A DNA stretch of 64,000 nt from Escherichia phage LYE-01. Under the pieces are notes generated by a model. The model was not told the DNA's origin. It ran no database searches and was given only the letters and a program-made list of their open reading frames with translations. Shown in pieces: positions 6,935-48,034 of this stretch. The position numbers were made by a program, and so were the translations under genes. Each line of letters starts with the position of its first letter. Positions within the stretch are counted from its first letter, which is position 1. The stretch is taken from sequence record PQ303785.1; one strand, given 5' to 3'.

Positions 6935-7036
6935 AAACTTTTCAAAAATTTTTTCACAAAACTGTTTACATCTCTGTTCTTCCGTGGTACTATATCAATA
7001 TTAACTACTGATACAGAAAACAACTTGGAGAATAAA
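6935..7036 (+). repeat. promoter-leader cassette, copy 1 of a dispersed family
   Basis: ATTCCCTAAAAC...TTTTTCACAAAACTGTTTACA...GGTACTATA...ACTGATAC...GGAGAATAAAATG; near-copies at about 21645, 23100, 32680 and 47936. Confidence 0.6.
6964..6993 (+). promoter_or_regulatory. T4-type early promoter
   Basis: GTTTAC, 18 nt, TACTAT. Confidence 0.55.
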
Positions 7037-7300
7037 ATGGATAATTACGGCGAACTGTTTAATTTCTTTATGAAATGCGTTTCAGAAGATTTCGGTCGTA
7101 CAGTGAATGATATTAAAGTCATCGGTCCTGACCATCCGATGTTTGAAACTTACGCAGTAATGGGTAATGAAGACGGTCAGTGGTATACTGTAAAGGTTGT
7201 GATTAACATGTTCACTGCTGAAGGTTATGTTAAACTGTCTTCTAAAGTTTACCATGATAACGACGAAATCGCAGAAGAATATTTCAATAATATGAAATAA
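7037..7300 (+). CDS. hypothetical protein
   Basis: ORF track from 7025; ATG at 7037 follows GGAGAATAAA; 87 aa. Confidence 0.5.
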   Translation: MDNYGELFNFFMKCVSEDFGRTVNDIKVIGPDHPMFETYAVMGNEDGQWYTVKVVINMFTAEGYVKLSSKVYHDNDEIAEEYFNNMK

Positions 7301-7368
7301 GTGTGTACAAACACCAAGGACGGTGTTATTATAGATTTATCAAAACAAATACAGAAACGGAGAAATAA

Positions 7369-7545
7369 ATGACTACTTTAACTATTTGGTTTGACGAAAA
7401 TGAAGAAACATACTGTGTGAACATTGATGAAAGTCCAATGCCTGACTTTGAATCTTCAGATAAGAAGTCGGTTATATCTTGGGCTGAAGGTTATAAAGCA
7501 GCAAAAGGCGATGTTAAAATAGTTTATAAACTCTTTGAAATATAA
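7369..7545 (+). CDS. hypothetical small protein
   Basis: 58-aa ORF (MTTLTIWFDENEETYCV...) with GGAGAAATAA SD; below the ORF-track size cutoff. Confidence 0.4.
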   Translation: MTTLTIWFDENEETYCVNIDESPMPDFESSDKKSVISWAEGYKAAKGDVKIVYKLFEI

Positions 7546-7588
7546 TACTTCCATGGATTTTAAATTTCAATCAACCTAAGGAAATACT

Positions 7589-8182
7589 ATGAACACACTG
7601 AAGAAAATTGTTGAGTTTATTCGCACTAAACTTGGTTCTGCTATGGCTAAAAATCTATCTGTTGAAGAACAGTATACTGCTGCAGCAGCAAAATTACTTG
7701 ATAAAATTAAAGACCTAAAAACTGCTTCTGTTAAATCTATTAATGAAGAAAAACGTATTCGTGAACTTGTTATCGAAAAGAATCGACAAGCCGAATCAAA
7801 AGAGCGTGAAATTCGCAAGCTTCTTTCCGAAGGTCAAGATGTAACAATGCATGCTAAACTCGGTTTGCTATATCGTCGAACAGCTGAGCAGTTGACTACT
7901 AAGGCTGACGGTTATGCTGAAATGCGAATTGAAATCGCCAAGAAAGTAGTTGAGTTAGATGATGCTCGCCAAGAACTTGCAGTTAAATTGGAATATATCC
8001 GTGAAACTCGTGCAGCAAATGCCCTTGGAATTAGTACTGCCGATGATGTAGTTGAAATTGCAGCACTGACCAAGGTTGATATTGAAGATACTCTTGCTCG
8101 AGTTGAAACCTTTAATGGTAATATTTCTGGGGTTGAAACCACCTCTGCCGATGTCCAGGAATATATTAATTCTCTGAAATAA
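7589..8182 (+). CDS. hypothetical coiled-coil protein
   Basis: 197 aa, heptad-rich and charged throughout (possibly PspA-like; not verified). Confidence 0.5.
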
Positions 8183-8187
8183 TGATA

Positions 8188-8203
8188 AGGGGCTTCGGCC
8201 CCT
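8188..8203 (+). terminator. UUCG-tetraloop hairpin
   Basis: aggggc-TTCG-gcccct right after the stop; weak U tract. Confidence 0.45.
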
Positions 8204-8223
8204 ATTACTTGGAGTAAATAGGA

Positions 8224-9193: not shown

Positions 9194-9537
9194 ATAAAGT
9201 CAAATATTCGCTTCCTGAGTCATTTTTAATTTTTGCTGTGGCGTTGGCTGCAGCTCTTGCGGGTAGTCTTTTTGGATTGTTAATTGACTGTCTTATTTTA
9301 AACATCGACGGCACAGTAAATATAACAGAAGTTTGGAGTGAACTTCACTATACTAAAATTATTTCATTATTTTCATTCTTTGGTACCATGTTATATTTTC
9401 ATTATGATAATTTTAAAATAAATTGGCAAAGAAAAAAGGATTACAAAATACAATTAAAAGAATATAATAGCTACATGTCTTATATTGAAAATGAATCAAT
9501 GAAAGAGTTTGTGAGTGATTGCAGGAAATTAAAATGA
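9175..9537 (+). CDS. small membrane protein (tandem paralog 2)
   Basis: 120 aa, two hydrophobic helices; C-terminal ENESMKEFVSDCRK. Confidence 0.5.
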   Translation: MQKPKLNKVKYSLPESFLIFAVALAAALAGSLFGLLIDCLILNIDGTVNITEVWSELHYTKIISLFSFFGTMLYFHYDNFKINWQRKKDYKIQLKEYNSYMSYIENESMKEFVSDCRKLK

Positions 9538-9974: not shown

Positions 9975-10505
<531 letters not shown>

Positions 10506-10509
10506 AGTT

Positions 10510-10539
10510 GTTTACTTTCTCCTAGAACTGTGATAGTAT
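10510..10539 (+). promoter_or_regulatory. T4-type early promoter
   Basis: GTTTAC, 18 nt, TAGTAT upstream of ORF 10577. Confidence 0.5.
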
Positions 10540-10576
10540 ATTCATAGTTACTAATTAAAATATTTAAAGGAACCAT

Positions 10577-10894
10577 ATGAAAACGTTTAAAGAATTTATT
10601 GCAGAATCTGCCCAAGGACAACGTGTAGAAGGCGGTTATATCTGGATTGAACAAGTTGAGCCGCCAAGTCGCACTTCTACAGGTAAATGGAAAATCACTG
10701 TTGATGGTCCTGGTGGTAAACGTAGGACTCTTAAAGAAATTAACGGGTACTATGAAGAAGCTCTTTCTGACGCGGGTACTTATATGATGCAAATCATGAT
10801 TAAAAACCCAGAAAATCGTTTTGCGGCTAGAGTTTTCCGCCGTATTGGAAATAAGCTTTATGATGCATATTCTAAAAACTTCCCTAAAGAATAA
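10577..10894 (+). CDS. internal-protein-like protein with capsid-targeting leader
   Basis: 105 aa, MKTFKEFIAESAQ...; extra capsid-targeted ORF between e and ipIII. Confidence 0.6.
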   Translation: MKTFKEFIAESAQGQRVEGGYIWIEQVEPPSRTSTGKWKITVDGPGGKRRTLKEINGYYEEALSDAGTYMMQIMIKNPENRFAARVFRRIGNKLYDAYSKNFPKE

Positions 10895-10909
10895 AAATAA
10901 AGGAAACAC

Positions 10910-11488
10910 ATGAAAACCTATAAAGAATTTATCGCTGAAGCTTCTGTGGAAAAGGCCAAAGGCATTAATAAGGACGAGTGGAACTATCGTGGTGGAAACG
11001 GCTTTGACCCTAAAACAGCCCCTATTGAACGATACTTAGCTACAAAAGCTTCCGATTTTAAAGCTTTCGCTTGGGAAGGACTTCGCTGGCGTACCGATTT
11101 AAATATTGAAGTTGACGGACTTAAATTTGCTCATATTGAAGATGTTGTTGCTAGTAACTTAGACGCAGCTTTTGTTAAAGCCGACAGTGATCTTCGTCGC
11201 TGGAATTTAAAACTGTTCTCTAAACAAAAAGGCCCGAAGTTTGTGCCTAAAGCCGGTAAATGGGTCATTGATAATAAATTAGCTAAGGCTGTCAACTACG
11301 CTGGTCTTGAATTCGCCAAGCACAAATCATCATGGAAAGGTCTTGATGCAATGGCTTTCCGTAAAGAATTTGCTGATGTTATGGCTAAAGGCGGCTTTAA
11401 GGCAGAAATAGATACCTCTAAAGGTACGTTTAAGGACGCTAATGTTCAGTACGCTTATGCCGTTGCTAATGCAGCCCGTGGTAATTAA
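10910..11488 (+). CDS. ipIII: internal protein III
   Basis: 192 aa (T4 IPIII is 193 aa), MKTYKEFIAEA leader; position next to e. Confidence 0.75.
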   Translation: MKTYKEFIAEASVEKAKGINKDEWNYRGGNGFDPKTAPIERYLATKASDFKAFAWEGLRWRTDLNIEVDGLKFAHIEDVVASNLDAAFVKADSDLRRWNLKLFSKQKGPKFVPKAGKWVIDNKLAKAVNYAGLEFAKHKSSWKGLDAMAFRKEFADVMAKGGFKAEIDTSKGTFKDANVQYAYAVANAARGN

Positions 11489-11529
11489 TAAGGCCTATAC
11501 TTAGGCCTATTTACATTTAAAGGAAACAT

Positions 11530-11832
11530 ATGAAAACATTTAAAGAATTTATCACTGAAGCAAAAGCCCCGAAGGTTTTTCAAATTTGTTCACAAGGAAA
11601 TTTAGACAAAGAATACGTTGACGCCATCGTAGCAAGCATTGTCAACCAAGGCGTGCAAGTAGATGCAGTTGAATTTACCAAAGGCCCTACCTTTAATATC
11701 GTTGTATCTAAGGGTTCTTTGGCTAAAATTAAAAAGGCCTGGGGTGTTATGAGAGCTTACCAAGTAGATGATTCTGCTCCCGGGCCGAAAGTACGAATGA
11801 ATACCCTTAAGGGAGGCCGTGAATACGTTTAG
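11530..11832 (+). CDS. ipII: internal protein II
   Basis: 100 aa (T4 IPII is 100 aa), MKTFKEFITEA leader. Confidence 0.75.
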   Translation: MKTFKEFITEAKAPKVFQICSQGNLDKEYVDAIVASIVNQGVQVDAVEFTKGPTFNIVVSKGSLAKIKKAWGVMRAYQVDDSAPGPKVRMNTLKGGREYV

Positions 11833-11910
11833 GCCTATTGTCTATACTTATTAGAATATTATACGGACTACCATGTGCCACGGAATGGCCCAACCTAAAA
11901 GAGAAACTAA

Positions 11911-12776: not shown

Positions 12777-12784
12777 GAGGTTAT

Positions 12785-13907: not shown

Positions 13908-13937
13908 GTTTACTTTTCCTCTTGACTGTGGTATAAT
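13908..13937 (+). promoter_or_regulatory. T4-type early promoter
   Basis: GTTTAC, 18 nt, TGTGGTATAAT (extended -10) upstream of regB. Confidence 0.6.
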
Positions 13938-13964
13938 TTTTCTATCAGTTAAGAGGAGAATAAC

Positions 13965-14426
13965 ATGACTATCAATACAGAAGTTTTTATCCGTCGAAAT
14001 AAGCTCCGTCGTCACTTTGAGTCGGAGTTTCGTCAAATTAACAATGAGATTCGTGAGGCATCAAAAGCAGCAGGGGTCTCATCGTTTCATCTAAAATATT
14101 CTCAACATCTTCTTGATCGTGCAATTCAACGGGAGATTGATGAGACATATGTTTTTGAATTATTCCACAAAATAAAAGACCATGTTTTAGAAGTTAATGA
14201 ATTCCTGAGTATGCCTCCGCGTCCTGACATTGACGAGGATTTTATTGATGGGGTTGAATATCGTCCTGGGCGTTTAGAAATCACAGATGGAAATCTTTGG
14301 CTTGGATTTACAGTTTGTAAACCTAATGCGAAGTTCAAAGACCCGTCGCTTCAGTGCAGGATGGCAATTATTAACAGTCGTCGTTTACCAGGAAAGGCTT
14401 CTAAAGCAGTAATTAAAACTCAATGA
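13965..14426 (+). CDS. regB: RegB endoribonuclease
   Basis: 153 aa (MTINTEVFIRRNKLRRHF...); size and position between the vs region and tk match T4 regB. Confidence 0.8.
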   Translation: MTINTEVFIRRNKLRRHFESEFRQINNEIREASKAAGVSSFHLKYSQHLLDRAIQREIDETYVFELFHKIKDHVLEVNEFLSMPPRPDIDEDFIDGVEYRPGRLEITDGNLWLGFTVCKPNAKFKDPSLQCRMAIINSRRLPGKASKAVIKTQ

Positions 14427-18063: not shown

Positions 18064-18068
18064 CATTA

Positions 18069-18090
18069 GTCTCCTTCGGGAGACTTTTTT
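18069..18090 (+). terminator. intrinsic terminator (UUCG tetraloop plus U-run)
   Basis: gtctcc-TTCG-ggagac followed by TTTTTT. Confidence 0.7.
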
Positions 18091-18100
18091 CATTTTACCG

Positions 18101-18130
18101 GTTTACTTTCCATTTGAGCTGTGATACTAT
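18101..18130 (+). promoter_or_regulatory. T4-type early promoter
   Basis: GTTTAC, 18 nt, TACTAT immediately after the terminator. Confidence 0.55.
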
Positions 18131-18158
18131 ACAACCATCGGATAAAGAGGAGAACATC

Positions 18159-18347
18159 ATGAAAATTGAAGCACTTAATCAAGAAGGAAATATCTACGTC
18201 ATCATTAATGGTGATTTTTTCGTCGACATGGATGAAGTTACTAGTGAAGAACTTGTAGAACTTCTTAAGAAACGTTATGATATGTGTGATGAAGCTGCAA
18301 CTCATATGGCGTGTGCAATATTCTCTCTTTCATATGTGGTGGAATAA
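18159..18347 (+). CDS. hypothetical small acidic protein
   Basis: ATG at 18159 after AGAGGAGAA SD; 62 aa. Confidence 0.5.
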
Positions 18348-18890: not shown

Positions 18891-18920
18891 GTTTACAAGT
18901 TGGCAAGGTTATGGTATAGT
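18891..18920 (+). promoter_or_regulatory. early promoter with stem-loop (PeSL-like)
   Basis: GTTTACAAG ... TGGTATAGT; imperfect inverted repeat AAGGTTA/TAATCTT spans the -10 region. Confidence 0.5.
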
Positions 18921-19055
18921 AATCTTGTCAACTGCCAAGGAGAAGAGAATGAAAGTTTTGTTTGTTGTGTATGTGATGATTCAATATAATCACCCGATGT
19001 TTACTTATAATCTGGTGAACAATATTATTGATATTATTCAAAGGAGTATGTAATT

Positions 19056-21618: not shown

Positions 21619-21621
21619 TAA

Positions 21622-21646
21622 GGGAGCCTTCGGGCTCCCTTTTTTA
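21622..21646 (+). terminator. intrinsic terminator (UUCG tetraloop plus U-run)
   Basis: gggagcc-TTCG-ggctccc followed by TTTTTTA. Confidence 0.75.
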
Positions 21647-21733
21647 TTTCAAAAATTTTTCACAAAACTGTTTACAAGCATAAAGCTTTATGGTACTATA
21701 CAACTATCAACTGATACGGATTTGGAGAATAAA
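21645..21733 (+). repeat. promoter-leader cassette, copy 2
   Basis: TTTTTCACAAAACTGTTTACA ... GGTACTATACAACTATCAACTGATACGGATTTGGAGAATAAAATG. Confidence 0.6.
21670..21699 (+). promoter_or_regulatory. T4-type early promoter
   Basis: GTTTAC, 18 nt, TACTAT. Confidence 0.55.
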
Positions 21734-22702
21734 ATGAAAACTGTAACTATCAATAAGGGTATCTACTTCGGTAAAGAAATCTCTGGAACTTTTGAGCTCT
21801 TAGGCGAATGGTTCCCAGATAATGCTCCGGTAGATGCACAAGGAGATGGTAAAGTTTTTGTTGAAATTGACGGTAAACGTCGTGGTGTTTGGGTTTACAA
21901 ATCAGATATTTCATATGATGGTGTAAAAGTTGAAGAAGTTAAAGAATCATATGAAGATATGAAAACCCGCATTAATAAAAGATTTAATGTTATGGGAATG
22001 ATGACGAATGGTATTATTAATGGAAATATTCGTTCATTAATTATCTCTGGCGCAGCAGGTATTGGTAAAACGTATTCTTTAGATAAAGCTTTAAATAAAG
22101 CAAATGATAATGGATACATTGAATATAAAAGCATTAATGGTAAAATCTCTGGTATTGGTCTTTATGAGCAGCTTTGGAATAATCGTGAAGAGAATTCTGT
22201 CCTTTTGATTGATGATGTGGATGTTTTCTCTGATATGGACATTCTTAATCTTCTGAAAGCTGCTCTGGACACTGGAGAGACCCGTAAAGTCTGCTGGAGC
22301 ACTGCATCTTCTTACTTAGAAGAAAAAGGCATTGACCGTGAGTTTGAATTTAAAGGAACGATTGTTTTTATCACAAACGTTGACATTGACCGCGAATTAG
22401 ACCGCGGTACTAAACTTGCTCCACATTTACAAGCATTAGTGTCCCGCTCAGTTTATTTAGATTTGGGTGTTCACACCAATGAAGAAATTATGGTCAGGGT
22501 TGAAGATGTTATTCTTTCAACTGACATGATGCAAAAGCGCGGTCTTTCTGATGAAGAAACTTATAAAGCATTATCATGGATGAAAGTTAATGTTAATCGT
22601 TTACGCAATGTTTCACTGCGTACTGCTCTTTATCTTGCTGACTTTATTATGACCGACAAAAACGGTTGGGAAGAAATTGCTGAGGTTACTCTTCTGAAAT
22701 AA
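21734..22702 (+). CDS. AAA+/P-loop ATPase
   Basis: ATG at 21734 after GGAGAATAAA; Walker A ISGAAGIGKTYS, Walker B VLLIDDVD, with a roughly 90-aa beta-rich N-terminal domain. Confidence 0.6.
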   Translation: MKTVTINKGIYFGKEISGTFELLGEWFPDNAPVDAQGDGKVFVEIDGKRRGVWVYKSDISYDGVKVEEVKESYEDMKTRINKRFNVMGMMTNGIINGNIRSLIISGAAGIGKTYSLDKALNKANDNGYIEYKSINGKISGIGLYEQLWNNREENSVLLIDDVDVFSDMDILNLLKAALDTGETRKVCWSTASSYLEEKGIDREFEFKGTIVFITNVDIDRELDRGTKLAPHLQALVSRSVYLDLGVHTNEEIMVRVEDVILSTDMMQKRGLSDEETYKALSWMKVNVNRLRNVSLRTALYLADFIMTDKNGWEEIAEVTLLK

Positions 22703-22803: not shown

Positions 22804-23106
22804 ATGTTATACTCAAAGGCTCGTGAAATTTACGAAACTAAGATTAAAGAAGCTGTATTTCAATTTGCAACGACAATGCGATGGACAAATGACTGGGAGT
22901 ATTCAAAAAATCATAAGAAGCCCATGGTGACAAGAAAGGCTCATATGTTAGTGTTAATAGACCGTGAGCAGATTAAAGCCCGAGAAGCCCTCCAGAATCA
23001 TAAAAAGGCTGCCTTTGAATGGTTTATGGATAACACTGCTCCTGAGACTAAGAAAGCAGTGAGCGCATGGTTCAGTGGAAAAAATTGTGAAAGAAGTTTC
23101 TTTTAG
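22804..23106 (+). CDS. hypothetical protein
   Basis: ATG at 22804 after GGAGG; about 100 aa. Confidence 0.45.
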   Translation: MLYSKAREIYETKIKEAVFQFATTMRWTNDWEYSKNHKKPMVTRKAHMLVLIDREQIKAREALQNHKKAAFEWFMDNTAPETKKAVSAWFSGKNCERSFF

Positions 23107-23165
23107 TGGTTTACAAGACTGCTCCTCTGTGGTACTATACAACTATCAACTACGGAGGAACAAAA
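23100..23165 (+). repeat. promoter-leader cassette, copy 3
   Basis: GTTTACAAG ... GTGGTACTATACAACTATCAACTACGGAGGAACAAAAATG. Confidence 0.55.
23109..23138 (+). promoter_or_regulatory. T4-type early promoter
   Basis: GTTTAC, 18 nt, TACTAT. Confidence 0.55.
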
Positions 23166-23693
23166 ATGAACGCTAAAGATATTTTCAACTTGGTAAATTA
23201 CAACGATGGTAAATTTAAATCTGAAGCACAGAGTAAGTTCTTTAACGACATCTCAATCGGAGGTGAAATCACAGTTGATGGAGGACAAATTTACAAATCC
23301 CGCTGGAATTGGATCGTTATTATCGATGAGATTGGTATTGTAGAAATTTACAAGAATACGAATAAAAATCGTACATTACACTGGTCTCGTGATACTAACG
23401 AACAGTACAAAAAGGATAAAGCATCTAAAATGTCTCGTGTAACTCAAGAAGATATTGAGTTCATCAAGAAAGATATTTTAATGTATGATAACTTAATTGC
23501 TGAAGAGCAAGCTGTTATTGATAAATTTGACGAAATTAAAGCTTCTCGTGAAATTCCTGATTTTATGAAAGAATCAGTAAATGAACGATACTCTCTCATT
23601 TCAGAGCGTATTGAAACTTACAAAAAGCAAAGAGCTGAACGCCAAAATACTCTTCGGAAGTTTGAAGAACGGTTAAAGACGGTACTCGCATAA
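23166..23693 (+). CDS. hypothetical protein
   Basis: 175 aa with charged helical C-terminal half. Confidence 0.5.
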   Translation: MNAKDIFNLVNYNDGKFKSEAQSKFFNDISIGGEITVDGGQIYKSRWNWIVIIDEIGIVEIYKNTNKNRTLHWSRDTNEQYKKDKASKMSRVTQEDIEFIKKDILMYDNLIAEEQAVIDKFDEIKASREIPDFMKESVNERYSLISERIETYKKQRAERQNTLRKFEERLKTVLA

Positions 23694-26090: not shown

Positions 26091-26120
26091 TTTACTTTAC
26101 CACAAGGATGTGGTATAATG
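26091..26120 (+). promoter_or_regulatory. T4-type early promoter
   Basis: GTTTAC, 18 nt, TATAAT. Confidence 0.55.
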
Positions 26121-26147
26121 TTCTTACTTTCTACTGAGGAGATTAAT

Positions 26148-31505: not shown

Positions 31506-31972
31506 ATTACGATAGATTTTATCCCTGCGATTTTGTGAATGGCCCTGGATGCAGGGTCGTTCTTTTCGTTACGGGGTGTTTGCATAAATGTGAAGGGTGT
31601 TATAATAAATCAACATGGAATGCTAGAAATGGCGTTCCATTCACTGGTGAAACACTAGAACAATTAATTGAATGTTTGAATAATGATTATATAGAAGGAT
31701 TAACTATAACTGGAGGAGACCCTCTTTATCCTGATAACCGAGATGATGTTCATTGCATTGTTCAAACAGTAAAAAATCTTTATCCGAATAAAAGCATTTG
31801 GTTGTGGACAGGATACAAGTTTGAAGATATTAAACAACTAGAAATGCTTAAATATGTTGATGTTATTATTGATGGGAAGTATGAGAAAAATCTTCCGACC
31901 AAAAAGCTGTGGCGAGGATCAGATAATCAGCGACTTTGGTCAAATACCGATGGGGTGTGGAAACATGATTAA
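31502..31972 (+). CDS. nrdG: anaerobic RNR activating enzyme NrdG (radical SAM)
   Basis: 156 aa; cysteine cluster GCLHKCEGCYN. Confidence 0.9.
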   Translation: MNYDRFYPCDFVNGPGCRVVLFVTGCLHKCEGCYNKSTWNARNGVPFTGETLEQLIECLNNDYIEGLTITGGDPLYPDNRDDVHCIVQTVKNLYPNKSIWLWTGYKFEDIKQLEMLKYVDVIIDGKYEKNLPTKKLWRGSDNQRLWSNTDGVWKHD

Positions 31973-32611: not shown

Positions 32612-32640
32612 ACGGGCCCTCTGGGCCTTTCTTTCTCACA
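32612..32640 (+). terminator. hairpin plus T-rich tract
   Basis: ggccc-TCT-gggcc followed by TTTCTTTCTC. Confidence 0.5.
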
Positions 32641-32707
32641 TTCTGTATATTACCATTCTAACTATCATTCACTTCTTATCATTCCCTAAAATAATTTTCA
32701 CAAAGTT

Positions 32708-32737
32708 GTTTACAACAAGTTCAAACTGTGGTATTAT
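32708..32737 (+). promoter_or_regulatory. T4-type early promoter
   Basis: GTTTAC, 18 nt, TATTAT; upstream CCCTAAAATAATTTTCACAAAGTTG belongs to the repeat family. Confidence 0.55.
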
Positions 32738-32767
32738 TAACATATGAATTGCCTTTGAGGAATTGAT

Positions 32768-32950
32768 ATGGTTGTGGTTGATAAAGAAATTAAAAAGGGA
32801 CAGTATTATTTTATTAATGGTAATGTTGTTCGTGTTACTTATGTAAACGGTTTTGAAGTTTATTATCTTATACTCAAGTTACATAAACAGATGATTTGTG
32901 ATCGTGCTGTATTTAGTTCAGTTGCTAAGGAAATTAAACTCCATGGGTAA
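32768..32950 (+). CDS. hypothetical small protein
   Basis: 60-aa ORF. Confidence 0.4.
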   Translation: MVVVDKEIKKGQYYFINGNVVRVTYVNGFEVYYLILKLHKQMICDRAVFSSVAKEIKLHG

Positions 32951-33378: not shown

Positions 33379-33579
33379 ATGAATCCTGAATCTAAATTAT
33401 CACAACGAATTGCTGAAGCTCGTCGTCAGTTCTTTGAAAATATGATAGCCCAAGGTATTGATGACGAAGTTTTTCTGAACTGGTTTTGGAATCACAAATA
33501 TTCAAGCTGTTCAGGGGCAATATTAATATCAGCCGCAATGATGTACGAAGGCTGGAAGGGCGCCAAACAGTTTAGCTAA
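33379..33579 (+). CDS. hypothetical small protein
   Basis: 66 aa. Confidence 0.45.
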   Translation: MNPESKLSQRIAEARRQFFENMIAQGIDDEVFLNWFWNHKYSSCSGAILISAAMMYEGWKGAKQFS

Positions 33580-33597
33580 GGGCTTCGGCCCTTTTTG
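33579..33597 (+). terminator. intrinsic terminator (UUCG tetraloop plus U-run)
   Basis: aagggc-TTCG-gccctt followed by TTTT. Confidence 0.7.
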
Positions 33598-35512: not shown

Positions 35513-35686
35513 ATGAACACCCAGACTTCTGAAATAGATTATAATAAAATTCGTTCCTCTAAAGTAGAAATGATGAGACGCTTTAAAGAGTCTCATGATA
35601 AAGCTAAAGCAGAAGGAACTATAACATATAAGCGCATAAAATTTAGAAGCTCTAACGAGCCTTTGTATGGCGTATTATGCGGATAG
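35513..35686 (+). CDS. hypothetical small protein
   Basis: 57-aa ORF ending just before a UUCG hairpin. Confidence 0.35.
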   Translation: MNTQTSEIDYNKIRSSKVEMMRRFKESHDKAKAEGTITYKRIKFRSSNEPLYGVLCG

Positions 35687-35702
35687 GAGCTTCGGCTCCT
35701 AT
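35687..35702 (+). terminator. UUCG-tetraloop hairpin
   Basis: ggagc-TTCG-gctcc upstream of agt. Confidence 0.5.
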
Positions 35703-35752
35703 ATTGCTTTATAAATTTTTGGTAAAATAAACCAAAACAATGAGGATATTAA

Positions 35753-36955
35753 ATGAAAGTATGTATTTTTATGGCTCGAGGTCTTGAAGGTTGCGGTGTA
35801 ACTAAATTTTCTCTTGAGCAGCGTGATTGGTTTATTAAAAATGGTCATGAAGTAACTTTGGTTTATGCTAAAGATAAATCATTTACTCGTAATTGCGCGC
35901 ATGATTATAAATCATTTTCAATTCCGGTTTTATTGGCAAAAGAATACGATAAAACACTTAAGCTGGTAAATGATTGTGATATTCTAATTATCAATTCAGT
36001 TCCTGCTACTTCAGTCGAAGAAGACACGATTAATAACTATAAAAAAATTATTGATAACATTAAACCTTCGGTTCGTGTTGTAGTTTATCAGCATGACCAT
36101 TCTTCTCTTTCTTTGCGTCGAAATTTGGGATTAGAAGAAACTGTTCGTCGAGCTGATGTTATTTTTAGCCATTCTGATAATGGCGATTTTAATAAAGTTT
36201 TAATGAAAGAATGGTATCCAGAAACTGTTTCACTGTTTGATGATATTGAAGAAGCACCGACCGTATATAACTTTCAGCCTCCTATGGATATTGCGAAGGT
36301 TCGATCAACCTACTGGAAAGATGTTTCTGAAATTAACATGAATATCAATCGTTGGATTGGTCGTACTACTACATGGAAAGGCTTTTATCAGATGTTTGAT
36401 TTTCACGAAAAACATCTTAAACCTGCAGGACTAAGTACTATTATGGAAGGCCTGGAACGTTCTCCAGCGTTCATTCCTATTAAAGAAAAAGGAATTCCAT
36501 ACGAGTATTATCGTCTTCATCAAGTAGACCAAATTAAAATTGCTCCTAATTTGCCAACGCAAATTCTCGACCGTTATGTAAATAGCGAAATGCTTGAACG
36601 CATGAGTAAATCCGGATTTGGTTATCAGCTGAGTAAGTTGGACAAAAAATATCTACAGCGTTCTTTAGAATACACTCATCTCGAGCTTGGTGCATGTGGA
36701 ACAATTCCGGTATTTTGGAAATCTACGGGCGAAAATTTAAAATTCCGTGTTGATAATACTCCATTAATTTCTCATGATAGCGGTATCGTTTGGTTTGATG
36801 AAAATGACATGGAATCAACATTTGAACGTATTAAAGAACTGTCATCTGACCGAGCTCTTTATGACCGTGAACGTGAAAAAGCTTATGAATTTTTGTATCA
36901 GCATCAAGATTCAAGCTTCTGCTTTAAAGAACAGTTTGACATTATTACAAAATAA
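35753..36955 (+). CDS. agt: DNA alpha-glucosyltransferase
   Basis: 400 aa (MKVCIFMARGLEGCGVTKFSLEQRDWFIKNGHEV...); matches my recollection of T4 alpha-gt. Confidence 0.9.
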   Translation: MKVCIFMARGLEGCGVTKFSLEQRDWFIKNGHEVTLVYAKDKSFTRNCAHDYKSFSIPVLLAKEYDKTLKLVNDCDILIINSVPATSVEEDTINNYKKIIDNIKPSVRVVVYQHDHSSLSLRRNLGLEETVRRADVIFSHSDNGDFNKVLMKEWYPETVSLFDDIEEAPTVYNFQPPMDIAKVRSTYWKDVSEINMNINRWIGRTTTWKGFYQMFDFHEKHLKPAGLSTIMEGLERSPAFIPIKEKGIPYEYYRLHQVDQIKIAPNLPTQILDRYVNSEMLERMSKSGFGYQLSKLDKKYLQRSLEYTHLELGACGTIPVFWKSTGENLKFRVDNTPLISHDSGIVWFDENDMESTFERIKELSSDRALYDREREKAYEFLYQHQDSSFCFKEQFDIITK

Positions 36956-36972
36956 AGGGCTTCGGCCCTTTA
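36955..36972 (+). terminator. intrinsic terminator (UUCG tetraloop)
   Basis: aagggc-TTCG-gccctt plus T. Confidence 0.6.
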
Positions 36973-36994: not shown

Positions 36995-37135
36995 ATGATA
37001 TTTCTTGGATATGTGATACTTTTTCTGGCGTTTTATTTGTTCACCAGAGCGTGTTGGATTGGGTTCTTTAGTACTCCAGATGGATTTATTTCAATAATTT
37101 TATTTTGCATTTCAATGACGGTTCTTGATATATGA
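36995..37135 (+). CDS. hypothetical small membrane peptide
   Basis: 46-aa hydrophobic ORF, below track cutoff. Confidence 0.3.
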   Translation: MIFLGYVILFLAFYLFTRACWIGFFSTPDGFISIILFCISMTVLDI

Positions 37136-37755
37136 AAAAATATATAACTTATTTAACAATATATAGTGGAGATAAACTTCCTCCTTTTTATATTGGATCT
37201 ACATCTTTAGACAGGCATTTAGCCGGATATCATGGATCAGTTTTATCTAAAAAGTATAAGAAAATTTATAATGAAGAACTTTCAAATAACCCACATTTAT
37301 TTGATTCATGCATTTTAGATGAATTTGATACACGCGAAGAAGCTATTAAATGCGAGCTATATTATCAACGTTTGCATGATGCGGTTAAAAATCCATTATT
37401 CTTTAATATGTCATATGCTGCTCCAAAAGGTTCATTTGGAAGAGATATTAAAGGACAAAATCATCCATTATATGGTTCTCATAATTGTAAAGGAAACATA
37501 CATTCACATGACCCATTAACAGGAAAATCTGCCTTTTTACCGTATATTCCAGAAGGTTATGTAAAAGGAAGGTCAAATAAATTTAAAGCTTCATCACATA
37601 ATAAAGGTAAAAAATGGTATAATAACGGAGTTAAGCAAATGTTATGTCATGAACCTCCTGGTCCTGAATGGACAAAAGGAAAAATTAAAGAACTAGTTTC
37701 AAAAGCAGCTAAATTAGGATGGAAAAGACACCATGAAAATACTAAACTTGGGTGA
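37132..37755 (+). CDS. GIY-YIG homing endonuclease (Seg-like)
   Basis: 207 aa; N-terminal YITYLTIYSGDKLPPFYIGST matches the GIY-x(10)-YIG motif; basic C-terminal half. Confidence 0.75.
   Translation: MKKYITYLTIYSGDKLPPFYIGSTSLDRHLAGYHGSVLSKKYKKIYNEELSNNPHLFDSCILDEFDTREEAIKCELYYQRLHDAVKNPLFFNMSYAAPKGSFGRDIKGQNHPLYGSHNCKGNIHSHDPLTGKSAFLPYIPEGYVKGRSNKFKASSHNKGKKWYNNGVKQMLCHEPPGPEWTKGKIKELVSKAAKLGWKRHHENTKLG
37132..37755 (+). mobile_element. free-standing homing endonuclease gene between agt and 47
   Basis: GIY-YIG ORF lodged between two conserved core genes; its stop overlaps the start of gene 47 by 23 nt. Confidence 0.6.
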
Positions 37756-39012: not shown

Positions 39013-39199
39013 CATTAACGATGAATTCATAGCAAATATTGATTACACCGAAGAAGATTCTAGATATGTTGGAATAATTTATATCACATCAAAAGCAGCA
39101 CAAGGTGTTGTTTGCATGGCTGAATTTGATGAATACTTTTTAGATTATGATGATATGATAGAATGGTCTAAAAGATACATTAAAAGGAATCTTTTGTGA
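38984..39199 (+). CDS. hypothetical protein whose 5' end is duplicated at the HNH gene
   Basis: ATG at 38984 or GTG at 38993; N-terminus VKFSTFDINDEF parallels MKNFKLDINDEF of ORF 39196, with about 85 percent identity over roughly 40 nt. Confidence 0.4.
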   Translation: MHTVKFSTFDINDEFIANIDYTEEDSRYVGIIYITSKAAQGVVCMAEFDEYFLDYDDMIEWSKRYIKRNLL

Positions 39200-40050
39200 A
39201 GAATTTTAAACTTGACATTAATGATGAATTTTTAATAAAGGAATTAGTTGAAAAATTAGCGTTGAGTGAAGAAGACGCCAAGTCTTACATTAATTTTATT
39301 TCTATGAATTCAACTGTTAAAACTCCAGGTAAAACGGAAGCACACCACGTGCTTCCTAAATCAATATTTCCTGAATATTTAAAATCTACATGGAATTTAG
39401 TTAATTTAAGTCATTTTAATCATTTTAAAGCACACTTCTTATTAGCAAAAGGTAAAAATGGAAAAATGCTAAATGCTTTAAATAGAATGATGTCAGGAAA
39501 AACATATAAAAATTTATCTTTAGCCGAAGTTGATTTAATAGCTGCTGAATATAGTTTTATAAAACAAGATGTAAGTGACACAATATCAAAAAGGCTTCAA
39601 CAGTATTATTCAAATCCGCAAAATAGAAATGCTGCTAGAGAAAGGGCATTAAAATATTTTTCAGTAGCAAAAAATAGGAAAGATAACAAAGAAAGATTAA
39701 ATAATTTTAAAACAAAACAAAAAATTTCAATGGCTTCAAGGGAATGGTTTAATAACGAAGAAAATAAAATTAAACACCAAAAGGCTGTTCGTGCTGCTTT
39801 ATCAAAACCTGAATATAAAATAGCTATATCAAATTCAGTAGCTGCTAGTTGGAAAAATCCGGAGATTAGAAAAGCTCATATAGCATCTAGACGAAAAGGC
39901 TATCATTGGGATAATAAAGATAAATTGTATGAATTGTGGATATCATATAATCGTCCTAAACATGTGATGTTTAGGAAAATGTTAGTTAAGAATGGATATC
40001 CAATAGAGGCTTCATTACAGGCTTTAGTTAAAGAATTTTCTTCATTGTGA
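39196..40050 (+). CDS. HNH homing endonuclease-like protein (Mob-like)
   Basis: 284 aa; HNH core EAHHVLPKSIFPEYLKSTWNLVNLSHFNHFKAH; GTG start. Confidence 0.65.
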   Translation: MKNFKLDINDEFLIKELVEKLALSEEDAKSYINFISMNSTVKTPGKTEAHHVLPKSIFPEYLKSTWNLVNLSHFNHFKAHFLLAKGKNGKMLNALNRMMSGKTYKNLSLAEVDLIAAEYSFIKQDVSDTISKRLQQYYSNPQNRNAARERALKYFSVAKNRKDNKERLNNFKTKQKISMASREWFNNEENKIKHQKAVRAALSKPEYKIAISNSVAASWKNPEIRKAHIASRRKGYHWDNKDKLYELWISYNRPKHVMFRKMLVKNGYPIEASLQALVKEFSSL

Positions 40051-41991: not shown

Positions 41992-42000
41992 AGGTGTATT

Positions 42001-42390: not shown

Positions 42391-42445
42391 TTGCTTTATT
42401 AAATTAGTTATAAAATTAAATCTCATTTGAATTGAAGGAAATTAC

Positions 42446-43132
42446 ATGAAACTGTCTAAAGATACTACTGCTCTGCTCAAAAATTTCGCTACTATTAACT
42501 CCGGTATTATGCTTAAATCCGGCCAATTTATTATGACTCGCGCAGTTAATGGTACCACTTATGCGGAAGCAAATATTTCTGACACTATTGATTTTGATGT
42601 AGCGATTTACGATTTGAACGGTTTTCTCGGTATTCTGTCTCTAGTTAATGATGATGCAGAAATTTCCCAGTCAGAAGATGGTAATATTAAAATTGCTGAT
42701 GCTCGTTCAACAATTTTTTGGCCAGCAGCCGATCCGAGTACAGTAGTTGCTCCTAATAAACCAATTCCATTCCCGGTAGCATCTGTTGTTACTGAAATTA
42801 AAGCTGAAGACCTTCAACAGCTGTTGCGTGTATCTCGTGGTCTGCAGATTGATACAATTGCTATCACAGTAAAAGAAGGTAAAATCGTAATTAACGGTTT
42901 TAATAAAGTAGAAGATTCTGCTTTGACACGTGTTAAATATTCTTTGACTCTTGGTGATTATGATGGTGAAAATACATTTAATTTCATTATCAATATGGCA
43001 AATATGAAAATGCAACCAGGAAATTATAAACTTCTGCTCTGGGCAAAAGGTAAACAAGGCGCTGCTAAATTTGAAGGTGAACATGCGAATTATGTAGTAG
43101 CTCTTGAAGCTGATTCTACCCACGATTTTTAA
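42446..43132 (+). CDS. 45: sliding clamp gp45
   Basis: 228 aa; first gene of the 45-44-62-regA operon. Confidence 0.95.
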   Translation: MKLSKDTTALLKNFATINSGIMLKSGQFIMTRAVNGTTYAEANISDTIDFDVAIYDLNGFLGILSLVNDDAEISQSEDGNIKIADARSTIFWPAADPSTVVAPNKPIPFPVASVVTEIKAEDLQQLLRVSRGLQIDTIAITVKEGKIVINGFNKVEDSALTRVKYSLTLGDYDGENTFNFIINMANMKMQPGNYKLLLWAKGKQGAAKFEGEHANYVVALEADSTHDF

Positions 43133-43133
43133 T

Positions 43134-43153
43134 AGAGGGCTTCGGCCCTTTAT
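43134..43153 (+). terminator. UUCG-tetraloop hairpin (attenuator between 45 and 44)
   Basis: agagggc-TTCG-gccctt. Confidence 0.55.
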
Positions 43154-43183
43154 AATTTACACTAAAACTTGAATGAGGAAATT

Positions 43184-44143: not shown

Positions 44144-44144
44144 T

Positions 44145-44708: not shown

Positions 44709-44709
44709 A

Positions 44710-45078: not shown

Positions 45079-45080
45079 GC

Positions 45081-45103
45081 AAGGGGCTTCGGCCCCTTAT
45101 TTG
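45081..45103 (+). terminator. intrinsic terminator (UUCG tetraloop)
   Basis: aaggggc-TTCG-gcccctt followed by ATTT. Confidence 0.65.
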
Positions 45104-45156
45104 GAGTATAATATATCAAGAGCCTAATAACTCGGGCTATAAACTAAGGAATATCT

Positions 45157-47853
45157 ATGAAAGAATTTTATATCTCTATCGAAACAGTCGGAAATAACAT
45201 TGTTGAGCGTTACATTGATGAAAACGGAAAGGAACGTACTCGTGAAGTAGAATATCTTCCGACTATGTTTAGGCATTGTAAGGAAGAGTCAAAATACAAA
45301 GACATTTATGGTAAAAATTGCGCTCCTCAAAAATTTCCATCAATGAAAGATGCCCGAGATTGGATGAAACGAATGGAAGACATCGGTCTCGAAGCTCTCG
45401 GTATGAACGATTTTAAACTCGCTTATATCAGTGATACATATGGTTCAGAAATTGTTTATGACCGAAAATTTGTTCGTGTAGCTAACTGTGACATTGAGGT
45501 TACTGGTGATAAATTTCCTGACCCAATGAAAGCAGAATATGAAATTGATGCTATCACTCATTATGATTCAATTGACGACCGTTTTTACGTCTTTGATTTG
45601 TTGAATTCAATGTACGGTTCAGTATCAAAATGGGATGCAAAGTTAGCTGCTAAGCTTGACTGTGAAGGTGGTGATGAAGTTCCTCAAGAAATTCTTGACC
45701 GAGTAATTTATATGCCATTTGATAATGAGCGTGATATGCTCATGGAATATATTAATCTCTGGGAACAGAAACGACCTGCTATTTTTACCGGTTGGAATAT
45801 TGAGGGATTTGACGTTCCGTATATCATGAATCGTGTTAAAATGGTTCTCGGTGAACGCAGTATGAAACGTTTCTCTCCAATCGGTCGAGTAAAATCTAAA
45901 TTAATTCAAAATATGTACGGTAGCAAAGAAATTTATTCTATTGATGGCGTATCTATTCTTGATTATTTAGATTTGTACAAGAAATTCGCATTTACTAATT
46001 TGCCATCGTTCTCTTTGGAATCAGTTGCTCAACATGAAACCAAAAAAGGTAAATTACCGTACGATGGTCCTATTAATAAACTTCGTGAGACTAATCATCA
46101 ACGATACATTAGTTATAACATTATTGACGTAGAATCAGTTCAAGCAATTGATAAAATTCGTGGGTTTATCGATCTAGTTTTAAGTATGTCTTATTATGCT
46201 AAAATGCCTTTTTCTGGTGTAATGAGTCCTATTAAAACTTGGGATGCTATTATTTTTAACTCATTGAAAGGTGAACATAAGGTTATTCCTCAACAAGGTT
46301 CGCACGTTAAACAAAGTTTTCCAGGTGCATTTGTGTTTGAACCTAAACCGATTGCTCGTCGATACATTATGAGTTTTGACTTGACGTCTCTGTATCCTAG
46401 CATTATTCGTCAGGTTAACATTAGTCCTGAAACTATTCGTGGACAGTTTAAAGTTCATCCAATTCATGAATATATCGCAGGAACAGCTCCTAAGCCAAGT
46501 GATGAATATTCTTGTTCTCCGAATGGATGGATGTACGATAAGCATCAAGAAGGTATCATTCCAAAGGAAATCGCTAAAGTATTTTTCCAGCGTAAAGATT
46601 GGAAAAAGAAAATGTTCGCTGAAGAAATGAATGCCGAAGCTATTAAAAAGATTATTATGAAAGGCGCAGGGTCTTGTTCAACTAAACCAGAAGTTGAACG
46701 ATATGTTAAGTTCAGTGATGATTTCTTAAATGAACTATCAAATTACACCGAATCTGTTCTTAATAGTCTGATCGAAGAATGTGAAAAAGCAGCTACACTT
46801 GCTAACACAAATCAGCTGAACCGTAAAATTCTTATCAACAGTCTTTACGGCGCTCTTGGTAATATTCATTTCCGTTACTATGATTTGCGAAATGCTACTG
46901 CTATCACAATTTTTGGTCAAGTCGGTATTCAGTGGATTGCTCGTAAAATTAATGAATACCTGAATAAGGTGTGTGGAACTGATGGTGAAGATTTCATCGC
47001 AGCAGGTGATACTGATTCGGTATATGTTTGTGTAGATAAAGTTATTGAAAAAGTAGGTCTTGACCGCTTTAAAGAACAAAATGATTTAGTTGAATTCATG
47101 AATCAGTTTGGTAAGAAAAAGATGGAACCTATGATTGATGTTGCATATCGTGAGTTATGTGATTATATGAATAACCGCGAGCATCTGATGCATATGGACC
47201 GTGAAGCTATTTCTTGTCCTCCACTTGGTTCAAAGGGTGTTGGTGGATTTTGGAAAGCGAAAAAGCGTTATGCTCTGAACGTTTATGATATGGAAGATAA
47301 ACGATTTGCTGAACCACATCTAAAAATCATGGGTATGGAAACTCAGCAGAGTTCAACACCAAAAGCAGTACAAGAAGCTCTCGAAGAAAGTATTCGTCGT
47401 ATTCTTCAGGAAGGCGAAGAGTCTGTCCAAGAATACTACAAGAACTTTGAGAAAGAATATCGTCAACTTGATTATAAAGTTATTGCTGAAGTAAAAACCG
47501 CGAACGATATAGCGAAATATGACGATAAAGGTTGGCCAGGATTTAAATGCCCGTTCCACATTCGTGGGGTGCTAACTTATCGTCGAGCTGTTAATGGTTT
47601 AGGTGTAGCTCCAATTTTGGATGGAAATAAGGTAATGGTTCTTCCATTACGTGAGGGAAATCCATTTGGTGACAAGTGCATTGCTTGGCCATCGGGTACG
47701 GAACTTCCAAAAGAAATTCGTTCTGATGTACTGTCTTGGATTGACTACTCAACTTTGTTCCAAAAATCGTTTGTTAAACCGCTTGCGGGTATGTGTGAAT
47801 CGGCAGGTATGGACTATGAAGAAAAAGCTTCGTTAGACTTCCTGTTTGGCTGA
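45157..47853 (+). CDS. 43: DNA polymerase gp43 (family B)
   Basis: 898 aa; exonuclease and polymerase motifs including YGDTDS. Confidence 0.97.
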   Translation: MKEFYISIETVGNNIVERYIDENGKERTREVEYLPTMFRHCKEESKYKDIYGKNCAPQKFPSMKDARDWMKRMEDIGLEALGMNDFKLAYISDTYGSEIVYDRKFVRVANCDIEVTGDKFPDPMKAEYEIDAITHYDSIDDRFYVFDLLNSMYGSVSKWDAKLAAKLDCEGGDEVPQEILDRVIYMPFDNERDMLMEYINLWEQKRPAIFTGWNIEGFDVPYIMNRVKMVLGERSMKRFSPIGRVKSKLIQNMYGSKEIYSIDGVSILDYLDLYKKFAFTNLPSFSLESVAQHETKKGKLPYDGPINKLRETNHQRYISYNIIDVESVQAIDKIRGFIDLVLSMSYYAKMPFSGVMSPIKTWDAIIFNSLKGEHKVIPQQGSHVKQSFPGAFVFEPKPIARRYIMSFDLTSLYPSIIRQVNISPETIRGQFKVHPIHEYIAGTAPKPSDEYSCSPNGWMYDKHQEGIIPKEIAKVFFQRKDWKKKMFAEEMNAEAIKKIIMKGAGSCSTKPEVERYVKFSDDFLNELSNYTESVLNSLIEECEKAATLANTNQLNRKILINSLYGALGNIHFRYYDLRNATAITIFGQVGIQWIARKINEYLNKVCGTDGEDFIAAGDTDSVYVCVDKVIEKVGLDRFKEQNDLVEFMNQFGKKKMEPMIDVAYRELCDYMNNREHLMHMDREAISCPPLGSKGVGGFWKAKKRYALNVYDMEDKRFAEPHLKIMGMETQQSSTPKAVQEALEESIRRILQEGEESVQEYYKNFEKEYRQLDYKVIAEVKTANDIAKYDDKGWPGFKCPFHIRGVLTYRRAVNGLGVAPILDGNKVMVLPLREGNPFGDKCIAWPSGTELPKEIRSDVLSWIDYSTLFQKSFVKPLAGMCESAGMDYEEKASLDFLFG

Positions 47854-47865
47854 TAGAATAAATCT

Positions 47866-47889
47866 AGGGACCTCCAGGTCCCTTTTTCA
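47866..47889 (+). terminator. intrinsic terminator
   Basis: gggacct-CC-aggtccc followed by TTTTT. Confidence 0.7.
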
Positions 47890-47935
47890 TACAAGTAATA
47901 TAAATCTATACTTATGAAAAAGAGATGATTCTGGA

Positions 47936-48034
47936 CCCTTTGGATTCCCTAAAATTTTTTTCACAAAACTGTTTACATCCCGGTTCCTTTATGGTACTAT
48001 ATAACTATCAACTGATACGGATTTGGAGAATGAA
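47936..48034 (+). repeat. promoter-leader cassette, copy 5
   Basis: ATTCCCTAAAATTTTTTTCACAAAACTGTTTACA ... GGTACTATATAACTATCAACTGATACGGATTTGGAGAATGAAATG. Confidence 0.6.
47971..48000 (+). promoter_or_regulatory. T4-type early promoter
   Basis: GTTTAC, 18 nt, TACTAT. Confidence 0.55.

Follow-up and report, generated by a model that had tools for sequence, protein, structure and literature searches.

The 64,000-nucleotide (nt) stretch of Escherichia phage LYE-01 analysed here (sequence record PQ303785.1; hereafter the window) carries a dispersed family of similar intergenic blocks, each consisting of a promoter-like unit and the leader of the gene behind it, often accompanied by a stem-loop. 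Megablast comparison assigns the window to Tequatrovirus, with relatives that are 95-99% identical; identity to T4 is 92-97%, and local BLAST aligns the window collinearly with T4 (NC_000866) 77,337-10,285, in reverse complement. The gene order is gene 4, ipI, tRNAs, e, regB, tk, nrdC, nrdD, 55, 46/47, 45, 43, 42, uvsX, 41, 61, dam, soc, modB/modA and dda, and the + strand carries all early genes. Five loci singled out in a first-pass annotation, at about 6935, 21645, 23100, 32680 and 47936, lie upstream of e.8, nrdC.10, nrdC.8, 55.6 and imm.1, respectively. Each block very probably combines an immediate-early promoter of a T4-type phage with the 5' leader of the first cistron behind it, as in the promoter-early-stem-loop (PeSL) model.

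Probable promoters and leaders of the cassettes

The cassettes at the five named loci, followed by further predicted early promoters of the window, are listed here (ORF, open reading frame; IP, internal protein; SD, Shine-Dalgarno; aa, amino acids).

6927-7039, + strand: e.8 cassette, with ATTCCCTAAAA, UP element, GTTTACA (-35 at 6965), 17-nt spacer, TGGTACTAT, leader and GGAGAATAAAATG (ATG at 7037); T4 ~70,720-70,621
21645-21736, + strand: nrdC.10 cassette, reference copy of the subfamily, -35 at 21671, ATG at 21734; insertion hot spot in relatives
23089-23168, + strand: nrdC.8 cassette, -35 at 23110, ATG at 23166
32681-32770, + strand: 55.6 cassette, -35 at 32709, ATG at 32768
47944-48037, + strand: imm.1 cassette, -35 at 47972, ATG at 48035; leader 2 positions off the nrdC.10 leader
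3399-3467, + strand: predicted early promoter and leader of an ipI-type gene, leader ending in GGAGAATAAAATG
3738-3800, + strand: predicted early promoter and leader of a second IP-type ORF
4117-4177, + strand: predicted early promoter of trna.4, hairpin 4128-4155 across the -10, leader ending in GGAGAATAAAATG
10510-10579, + strand: predicted early promoter and leader upstream of an IP-type ORF
13908-13967, + strand: predicted early promoter and leader of regB, SD region GGAGAATAACA
18068-18161, + strand: composite terminator-promoter, with putative UUCG terminator 18068-18085, predicted early promoter (-35 at 18102) and leader
18891-18951, + strand: predicted early promoter, 15-bp hairpin 18898-18933 enclosing the -10 (repeat family D5)
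26090-26150, + strand: predicted early promoter and leader of nrdC.4, fused here to nrdC.3 by deletion
53435-53496, + strand: predicted early promoter of dmd, 15-bp hairpin 53442-53477 enclosing the -10; gene 41 stop codon abuts the -35
53923-53986, + strand: predicted early promoter, 14-bp hairpin 53930-53965 enclosing the -10; T4-absent 84-aa ORF 53984-54238 downstream
54238-54299, + strand: predicted early promoter of sp
56660-56717, + strand: predicted early promoter of the 186-aa ORF upstream of dam
58968-59062, + strand: putative UUCG terminator after soc (58968-58989), then predicted early promoter (-35 at 59005) and leader
61106-61164, + strand: predicted early promoter of modB, hairpin 61130-61164
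62441-62502, + strand: predicted early promoter and leader of srd

All five named loci carry GTTTAC (-36 to -31), a spacer of 17 (+/-1) nt and a TAnnnT -10, with TGG directly before the -10 TA at 5/5. The motif GTTTAC-N16-GNTANNNT has 19 matches in the window, exclusively on the + strand, where 0.16 are expected; together with a few relaxed sites these matches make up 23 promoter-like units, whose consensus reads aaaa.tttt.a.aaA.ttGTTTACt...tgTGgTAttATa....TAtcaa, the 17-nt spacer ending in tgTG and followed by gTAttAT (an extended -10, tgTGgTAttAT). A near-consensus, A/T-rich UP element, AAAATTTTTTTCACAAAACTG, is found at the promoters 6965, 21671, 47972 and 32709, and in weaker form at 23110, and the distance from -10 to start codon is 25-43 nt except at two of the 23 sites, 22752 and 61107, where it is 11 and 14 nt, respectively. 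Only this extended T4 consensus discriminates promoters; a generic sigma-70 hexamer scan does not, yielding 98 sites vs. 84.8 expected in the AT-rich window.

Early promoters (Pe) of T4 were reportedly described by Liebig and Rueger in 1989 and by Wilkens and Rueger in 1996. Their features include an A-rich UP-like region, GTTTAC from -36 to -31 and, 5' of -12, a stretch rich in G and T (Nolan et al., PMC1524935), and they have been termed 'uber UP/-35/TGn/-10 promoters' with additional conserved positions (Hinton, PMC2988021). The blocks share with them GTTTAC, the A/T-rich UP region, the 17-nt spacer, the TGn extended -10 and a location 5' to early-strand genes, and differ in nothing essential; their assignment to T4-type early promoters is supported at the level of sequence. 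The five named promoters are orthologous to the T4 regions upstream of the same five genes, in the right orientation, and homologous sites have already been annotated by other groups, as 'predicted early promoter' in fPS-90 and as 'promoter' in Lutter. Promoters at 53924, 56661 and 7304 have no T4 counterpart, because this phage carries extra genes. As judged from T4 biology, unmodified host sigma-70 RNA polymerase would fire the cassette promoters in the first minutes of infection.

The 21-nt block TTTTTCACAAAACTGTTTACA is exact at 6950, 21656 and 47957 and has 3 mismatches at 32694 and 62427 (chance expectation 0.02), and the 36-nt leader, exact at 21701, recurs with 2 mismatches at 48002 (chance expectation 0), numbers that dispose of the objection that the copies are chance similarities. 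A repeat search grouped the copies into a 63-nt family (D2: 3379, 6944, 21650, 23089, 32688, 47951) and a leader family (D6: 21686, 23125, 47987). The first-pass annotation had described one near-identical block at all five loci; the repeat is real and far above chance, but alignment finds the whole block only at 6935, 21645 and 47936. There, the e.8, nrdC.10 and imm.1 copies have ~95 nt in common, from about -55 to the ATG, and the likeness ends at the start codon. In the nrdC.8 copy (23100), the likeness is confined to the -35, the -10 and the beginning of the leader, the UP region not being shared; the 55.6 copy (32680) matches in its upstream half (ATTCCCTAAAA, UP region and -35) and has a leader of another sequence. 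Nor does the 18-nt gap given for the block hold: TTTACA and GGTACTAT are 15 nt apart, and the sigma-70 spacer is 17 nt. The 11-mer ATTCCCTAAAA recurs without mismatch at the 5' edge in three of the five named cassettes (6927-6937, 32681-32691, 47944-47954; 0.09 expected), 28 or 38 nt from the -35, the e.8 copy having one additional helical turn; it may be a distal UP region or the leftover of a terminator arm.

Used as a query, the 96-nt nrdC.10 cassette matches 546 phage records at 2957 places, usually 5-7 in a genome. The named loci belong to a tight subfamily, which in T4 lies upstream of imm.1, e.8, nrdC.10, nrdC.8, ndd.6, ndd.4 and motA, with a further intergenic copy between motB and cef. 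Behind this last cassette (T4 6,548-6,647) stands a short broken reading frame, MENSLKVLILF and then a stop codon; an IMG/VR relative (L013) has an intact ORF behind the same cassette, which suggests that the T4 copy precedes a decayed gene. A 3-nt difference (CAACTACTGA vs. CAACTGA) common to the window's imm.1 and nrdC.10 leaders was considered as a sign of gene conversion, a reading that was set aside because the difference amounts to the loss of one ACT repeat unit, which could recur by slippage.

At its 5' end the leader consists of TATCAAC, the conserved start region common to most early promoters, and at its 3' end of GGAGAATAAAA plus TG. GGAGAATAAAA agrees at every position with GG*AGRAYARAA, the strong cleavage-site consensus for RegB with ribosomal protein S1 (Durand et al. 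2006, as reviewed in PMC3014915). The window contains four exact copies of GGAGRAYARAA (3455, 4165, 7027, 21724; 0.5 expected), all at first cistrons behind early promoters, and copies with one mismatch at 48025 (imm.1) and 13955 (regB itself). A GGAG Shine-Dalgarno sequence is present at 14 of 20 promoter-proximal genes vs. 8 of 107 others (Fisher p = 5e-9). The window encodes the nuclease:

13965-14426, + strand: regB, endoribonuclease cutting GGAG leaders (153-aa ORF, collinear with T4 regB 62,279-62,740)

The nrdC.10 and imm.1 leader regions (21671, 47972) fold no better than shuffles (z = +0.68 and +0.45), and an unstructured leader fits a RegB target because secondary structure inhibits RegB; an Rfam search of the window returned ten tRNAs only, so that leader and hairpins match no curated RNA family. 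The proposal that the shared leader is a common control element, possibly cut by RegB, is supported by the exact consensus and by the enrichment of GGAG at promoter-proximal genes. On the best evidence this element is the known RegB target: RegB, aided by S1, would cut the GGAG leaders and shut off the first cistron. The RegB/S1 sites of T4 early mRNAs resemble those in the window in the exact match of GGAGAATAAAA, in their location in the SD sequence of first cistrons and in the presence of regB; cleavage, known in T4, is predicted for the leaders of the window.

Hairpins at cistron ends and across the -10

Besides the hairpins that form part of the promoters above, the following lie at or near cistron ends.

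6246-6269, + strand: putative GAAA terminator hairpin, left-hand copy of a direct repeat
6806-6825, + strand: putative GAAA-loop terminator hairpin, ~140 nt upstream of the e.8 promoter; right-hand copy of the direct repeat (D14)
8188-8203, + strand: C(UUCG)G hairpin after e.6
21620-21641, + strand: putative C(UUCG)G terminator after nrdC.11, 9-bp stem and U-run; 'terminator' annotated at the homologous fPS-90 site
32614-32628, + strand: terminator-like hairpin after nrdH, ~80 nt upstream of the 55.6 promoter
33578-33593, + strand: C(UUCG)G hairpin at the stop codon of a 55.3-type ORF
35683-35702, + strand: C(UUCG)G hairpin at the stop codon of a-gt.2
36953-36972, + strand: C(UUCG)G hairpin at the stop codon of a-gt
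43132-43153, + strand: C(UUCG)G hairpin at the stop codon of gene 45
45081-45098, + strand: C(UUCG)G hairpin after regA
47866-47883, + strand: putative terminator after gene 43 (hairpin and U-run), ~90 nt upstream of the imm.1 promoter
51699-51718, + strand: C(UUCG)G hairpin, 32 nt past the uvsX stop codon, within the overlapping gene 40

Perfect-stem hairpins of -9 kcal/mol or lower number 52 on the + strand vs. 28 on the - strand, and hairpins with a UUCG loop and a stem of at least 5 bp number 11 vs. 1. The GC-rich C(UUCG)G hairpins, ten in all, are on the + strand, nine of them at or shortly past a stop codon. Four (18068, 21620, 33578, 58968) look like intrinsic terminators because they are followed by U-runs, and three of these four lie directly upstream of early promoters (18102, 21671, 59005); in the interval 15-35 kb, terminator-like sites number 25 vs. 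9.0 +/- 2.7 expected. That such hairpins follow accessory ORFs, as had been proposed, is true of half of the ten, whereas the other half follow core genes (45, regA, uvsX, a-gt, soc). A UUCG hairpin stands directly upstream of only one of the five named loci (21645). The separate upstream hairpins of the named loci are that at 21620-21641, adjoining nrdC.10, and those ~90, ~80 and ~140 nt upstream at 47866, 32614 and 6806, the association being loose at the 6935 cassette.

CUUCGG hairpins of T4 intercistronic regions were reportedly described by Tuerk and colleagues in 1988. Those of the window share with the T4 hairpins, which are recounted in PMC4371310, GC-rich C(UUCG)G stems, restriction to the sense strand and location at cistron ends, and show no difference from them. 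Stable sense-strand hairpins, many of them C(UUCG)G and some with a U-run, would close the preceding transcription unit.

Inverted repeats enclosing the -10 itself had been noticed at 53434 and 53924; both are real, and there are three further examples. A perfect hairpin of -12 kcal/mol or lower spans the promoter's own -10 at 5 of the 23 promoters (4118, 18892, 53436, 53924, 61107), where shuffles that keep the hexamers lead one to expect 0.003, and at none on the - strand. On the + strand these hairpins, at 53442-53477, 53930-53965, 18898-18933, 4128-4155 and 61130-61164, give z = -6.8, -5.05, -5.3, -3.8 and -4.96, respectively; on the - strand, the fold at 18898-18933 gives z = -1.8. Energies are -18 to -19 kcal/mol on the + strand vs. 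-8 to -12.5 on the - strand, the complementary strand folding much more weakly because the stems use G-U pairs. Arm sequences differ completely among these promoters while the structure is kept, and the few changes between orthologous hairpins are A/G opposite U. IMG/VR scans yielded 17 loci each, a diversity too low to judge the -10 hairpins by covariation.

Since the promoter's own start lies inside the 3' arm, only read-through RNA could fold the -10 hairpin. The gap between the upstream stop codon and the -35 is at most 12 nt at four of the five promoters with such a hairpin, and at least 38 nt where there is a separate upstream hairpin. We infer that the -10 hairpins, too, serve to close the preceding cistron: a stop codon abutting the -35 would leave no room for a separate hairpin, which would then be built across the -10.

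Two hairpins involve ribosome sites. At modB, the hairpin 61130-61164 pairs the -10 region with the SD sequence and AUG, and at nrdC.8 a CT-rich spacer pairs with the gene's own SD sequence (~23120-23162; -16.2 kcal/mol, z = -4.95); in both (promoters 61107 and 23110) the SD sequence is paired in read-through RNA only. The classical example, the gene e hairpin, is found at 9981-10010 of the window. McPheeters and colleagues in 1986, and others, are said to have described hairpins that sequester the ribosome-binding site and have a promoter inside for T4 e, soc, 49 and I-TevI. As in those genes, the 5' arm at modB and nrdC.8 lies upstream of the promoter start and the SD sequence would be masked only in read-through RNA; in contrast to them, where the internal promoter is late, the promoter at modB and nrdC.8 is, by predicted function, early. 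It is conceivable, if rather doubtful, that promoter-embedded hairpins serve generally as switches sensitive to transcript origin, read-through RNA folding and promoter-started RNA not. At dmd, the mobD.2-region promoter, trna.4 and the 84-aa ORF, such a switch would cap the upstream message, a few nt ahead of the GGAG that RegB cuts, and at modB and nrdC.8 it would mask the SD sequence and AUG. Both the prediction of hairpin placement from stop-to-promoter spacing and the SD-sequestering 5' arm in two early promoters may go beyond published descriptions.

Proposed gene exchange at the cassettes and competing explanations

The nrdC.11/nrdC.10 junction has four different gene contents in six relatives, with junctions inside the cassette. 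The window, T4 and AR1 have a UUCG terminator, then the cassette, then nrdC.10; F13076 has a further promoter, a 161-aa ORF and a second terminator ahead of the nrdC.10 cassette. The alignment shows no difference between the window and fPS-90 or AV122 over the terminator, the promoter and the -10 as far as GGTACTATACAAnTATCAA (-10/TATCAA), after which these two phages continue with other leaders, the ORFs after the switch being either a 49-aa plus 87-aa pair or a 66-aa ORF. In fPS-90, LF73P3 and ZN18, nrdC.10 retains TTGGAGAATAAAATG behind a different promoter, and in LF73P3 a motA-type promoter is fused to an nrdC.10-type leader ahead of the 49-aa ORF. At nrdC.10 the switch points lie in one or other of the two best conserved sub-blocks, -10/TATCAA and GGAGAATAAAATG, where crossovers seem to be concentrated; promoter and ORF could then be separately exchangeable.

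Elsewhere, the imm.1 cassette has ~250 extra nt, an ORF between leader and imm.1, in 21 of 29 evenly sampled relatives; in two IMG/VR genomes the extra segment is an ORF of 78-85 aa with a signal peptide, to which the leader now belongs. Downstream of denB, three IMG/VR genomes (L015, L016, L019) have a T4-absent ORF directly behind a promoter of the subfamily, and L015 has a second such promoter ~500 nt further downstream, with a T4-absent gene set between the two. The e.8 neighbourhood is variable on both sides. A 329-nt insertion relative to T4 (53902-54230; promoter and 84-aa ORF) stops precisely at the sp promoter's -35, and a further insertion relative to T4 has its left junction 14 nt ahead of the -35 of the 56661 promoter. 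Junctions of insertions, deletions (indels) or replacements are thus located at or within cassettes at 21645, 47936, 6935, 53924/54239 and 56661. The earlier suggestion that the cassettes mark recombination breakpoints gains support from the varying flanked gene content at 21645, 47936 and 6935 and from the junctions inside the cassette at 21645. Units sharing ~60-100 nt would, in the actively recombining T4, be portable homology for inserting, deleting and swapping accessory genes.

Several observations nevertheless count against the cassettes as general exchange points. No cassette variation was seen at 23100 or 32680 in the genomes inspected, and many indels between window and T4 have no cassette boundary; several are due to an intron and to homing endonuclease genes. 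A candidate for a cassette-mediated event, the nrdC.4 deletion, proved to be joined within the similar first codons of the paralogous coding sequences nrdC.4 and nrdC.3 (26148-26167), and the e.2 deletion, likewise a candidate, at a ~20-nt repeat, TGCAGGAAATTAAAATGA, found at two translation starts (9508-9537). By hand tally, ~8 of 34 indel boundaries relative to T4 lie in promoter cassettes; this greatly exceeds the cassettes' share of the sequence, roughly 4.5%, but is not clearly above the 18% of gene starts that have a promoter, so that the enrichment is weak from the T4 comparison alone. Part of the cassette similarity could also be functional convergence on optimal promoter and ribosome sites. 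A ~300-nt length variant near 32680, considered as a further cassette event, is an extra ORF upstream of nrdH, away from the cassette.

Taken to its limit, convergence would mean that the copies were independently optimised as strong promoter and ribosome sites and had no part in gene shuffling. Each conserved sub-block is indeed a known functional consensus (UP, -35, TGn/-10, start site, RegB/S1-SD; PMC2988021, PMC3014915), and the weak enrichment of breakpoints against a gene-junction null points the same way; but the likeness reaches non-consensus positions (the spacer TGTTCTTCC and the mid-leader CAACTACTGATACRG), mosaics switch sharply inside the cassette, and at an ectopic locus a spacer of motA type precedes a leader of nrdC.10 type, which together make convergence as the whole explanation very unlikely.

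The near-identity of the leader ahead of unrelated genes might equally bring to mind a dedicated cis-regulatory RNA, CAACTACTGATACGG being the segment concerned, either as an operator for a repressor other than RegB or as a riboswitch-like element. This is extremely improbable, given the lack of a significant fold in the two leader regions and of any Rfam match except tRNAs, and given that the leader's conserved 3' part corresponds exactly to the RegB/S1 consensus and its 5' part to the promoter start region. The -10 inverted repeats, for their part, might act as DNA, whether as operators for a dimeric repressor shutting off early promoters or as cruciforms: they are centred on the -10, and the shut-off mechanism of early promoters is reported to be not fully understood (PMC2988021; PMC3014915). 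Arms that differ completely between promoters leave no common operator, however, and the dependence of the stems on G-T pairs that exist on the + strand only, along with orthologous changes from A to G opposite U, points to sense-strand RNA; we consider action as DNA highly improbable.

The morons of lambdoid phages were reportedly described by Juhala and colleagues in 2000. Morons, which are discussed in PMC2839356, resemble the cassettes in that an accessory gene travels with its own promoter and terminator, and differ in having no flanking conserved repeat able to mediate exchange. The PeSLs of RB49/phi1 comprise an AT-rich region, -35, -10, SD sequence, ATG and stem-loop (Arbiol et al. 2010, PMC2839356); in their commonest layouts the stem-loop, with G-T pairs, overlaps the -10 or lies between it and the -35 (PMC2839356). 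Those of T4/PST consist of TTTACW-N17-TAYWAT with an upstream AT-rich region, an SD sequence and ATG on the 3' side and a stem-loop just upstream (Comeau et al. 2014, PMC4122927). The blocks of the window are likewise composite intergenic units of ~100 nt with the SD sequence and ATG at the 3' end, dispersed in multiple copies, mainly through variable (hyperplastic) regions, and adjoining indels between relatives, and their stem-loops lie upstream (the T4/PST type) or overlap the -10 with G-T pairs (the RB49/phi1 type). In contrast to the published cases, both placements occur here in one T-even genome, tracking the room between stop codon and -35. The likeness to PeSLs drawn in the first-pass annotation agrees with these descriptions of early promoters with a stem-loop upstream or across the -10: the phenomenon, already known from RB49/phi1 and T4/PST, is confirmed here, and the interpretation is supported. 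Promoter class, RegB site and UUCG hairpins are likewise established T4 biology.

Accessory gene content and significance of the cassettes

The window also differs from T4 in accessory and mobile genes. Seven small ORFs start with nearly the same ~10 codons, MKT(F/Y)KEFI (3455-3496, 3788-3829, 6313-6354, 10567-10608, 10900-10941, 11520-11561, 55208-55249), which looks like the capsid-targeting leader of T4 internal proteins, and several indel boundaries relative to T4 fall directly after this shared coding leader. The segment 6279-6801, absent from T4, contains a late promoter and a 157-aa IP-like ORF (6323-6796; no Pfam match); the late-promoter motif TATAAATA ahead of the ORF is created at the junction, and the segment is flanked by a direct repeat of the GAAA-loop terminator hairpin (6243-6272, 6801-6830). 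T4 denV (endonuclease V, T4 64,939-65,355) has no blastn match anywhere in the window, and at 11562-11871 the vs.8 region directly follows an IP-type gene.

A 186-aa ORF with its own early promoter (56715-57275), of which T4 retains only a 3' remnant, lies immediately upstream of dam; given a weak, sub-threshold Pfam match to DpnII (GATC) restriction endonuclease (E = 0.0025), it could be a GATC nuclease adjoining a GATC methylase. In place of T4 beta-glucosyltransferase and segA, 49565-50407 encodes a protein of 280 aa with a match to the family of TET-associated glycosyltransferases (E = 1.2e-9). Rfam finds ten tRNA genes at 4745-5569 vs. eight annotated in T4, in a region that is rearranged relative to T4 and has no segB. 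The T4 mobile elements I-TevII (intron), mobB, mobC, mobD, segA and segF are absent, and mobile-content differences from T4 are located at 30224, 31502-31522, 35738-35761, 58597-58677, 37132-37755 and 39196-40050. A GIY-YIG-like ORF is inserted between 47.1 and 47 and a 284-aa ORF (no Pfam match) between 46.1 and 46, and nrdC.4 and e.2 are missing relative to T4.

The value of the present case lies in confirmation and in a clean worked example at the nrdC.11/nrdC.10 junction, with a modestly new angle in the occurrence of both hairpin placements in one T-even genome, where placement follows the room between stop codon and -35. If the switch proposed for promoter-embedded hairpins were real, translation of some immediate-early genes would be tied strictly to their own promoter, and the late-promoter logic of genes e, soc and 49 would extend to early promoters. 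More generally, the cassettes set early-gene timing in T4-like phages and would offer ready-made homology for swapping host-adaptation genes, which makes them useful for annotating and engineering therapeutic T-even phages.

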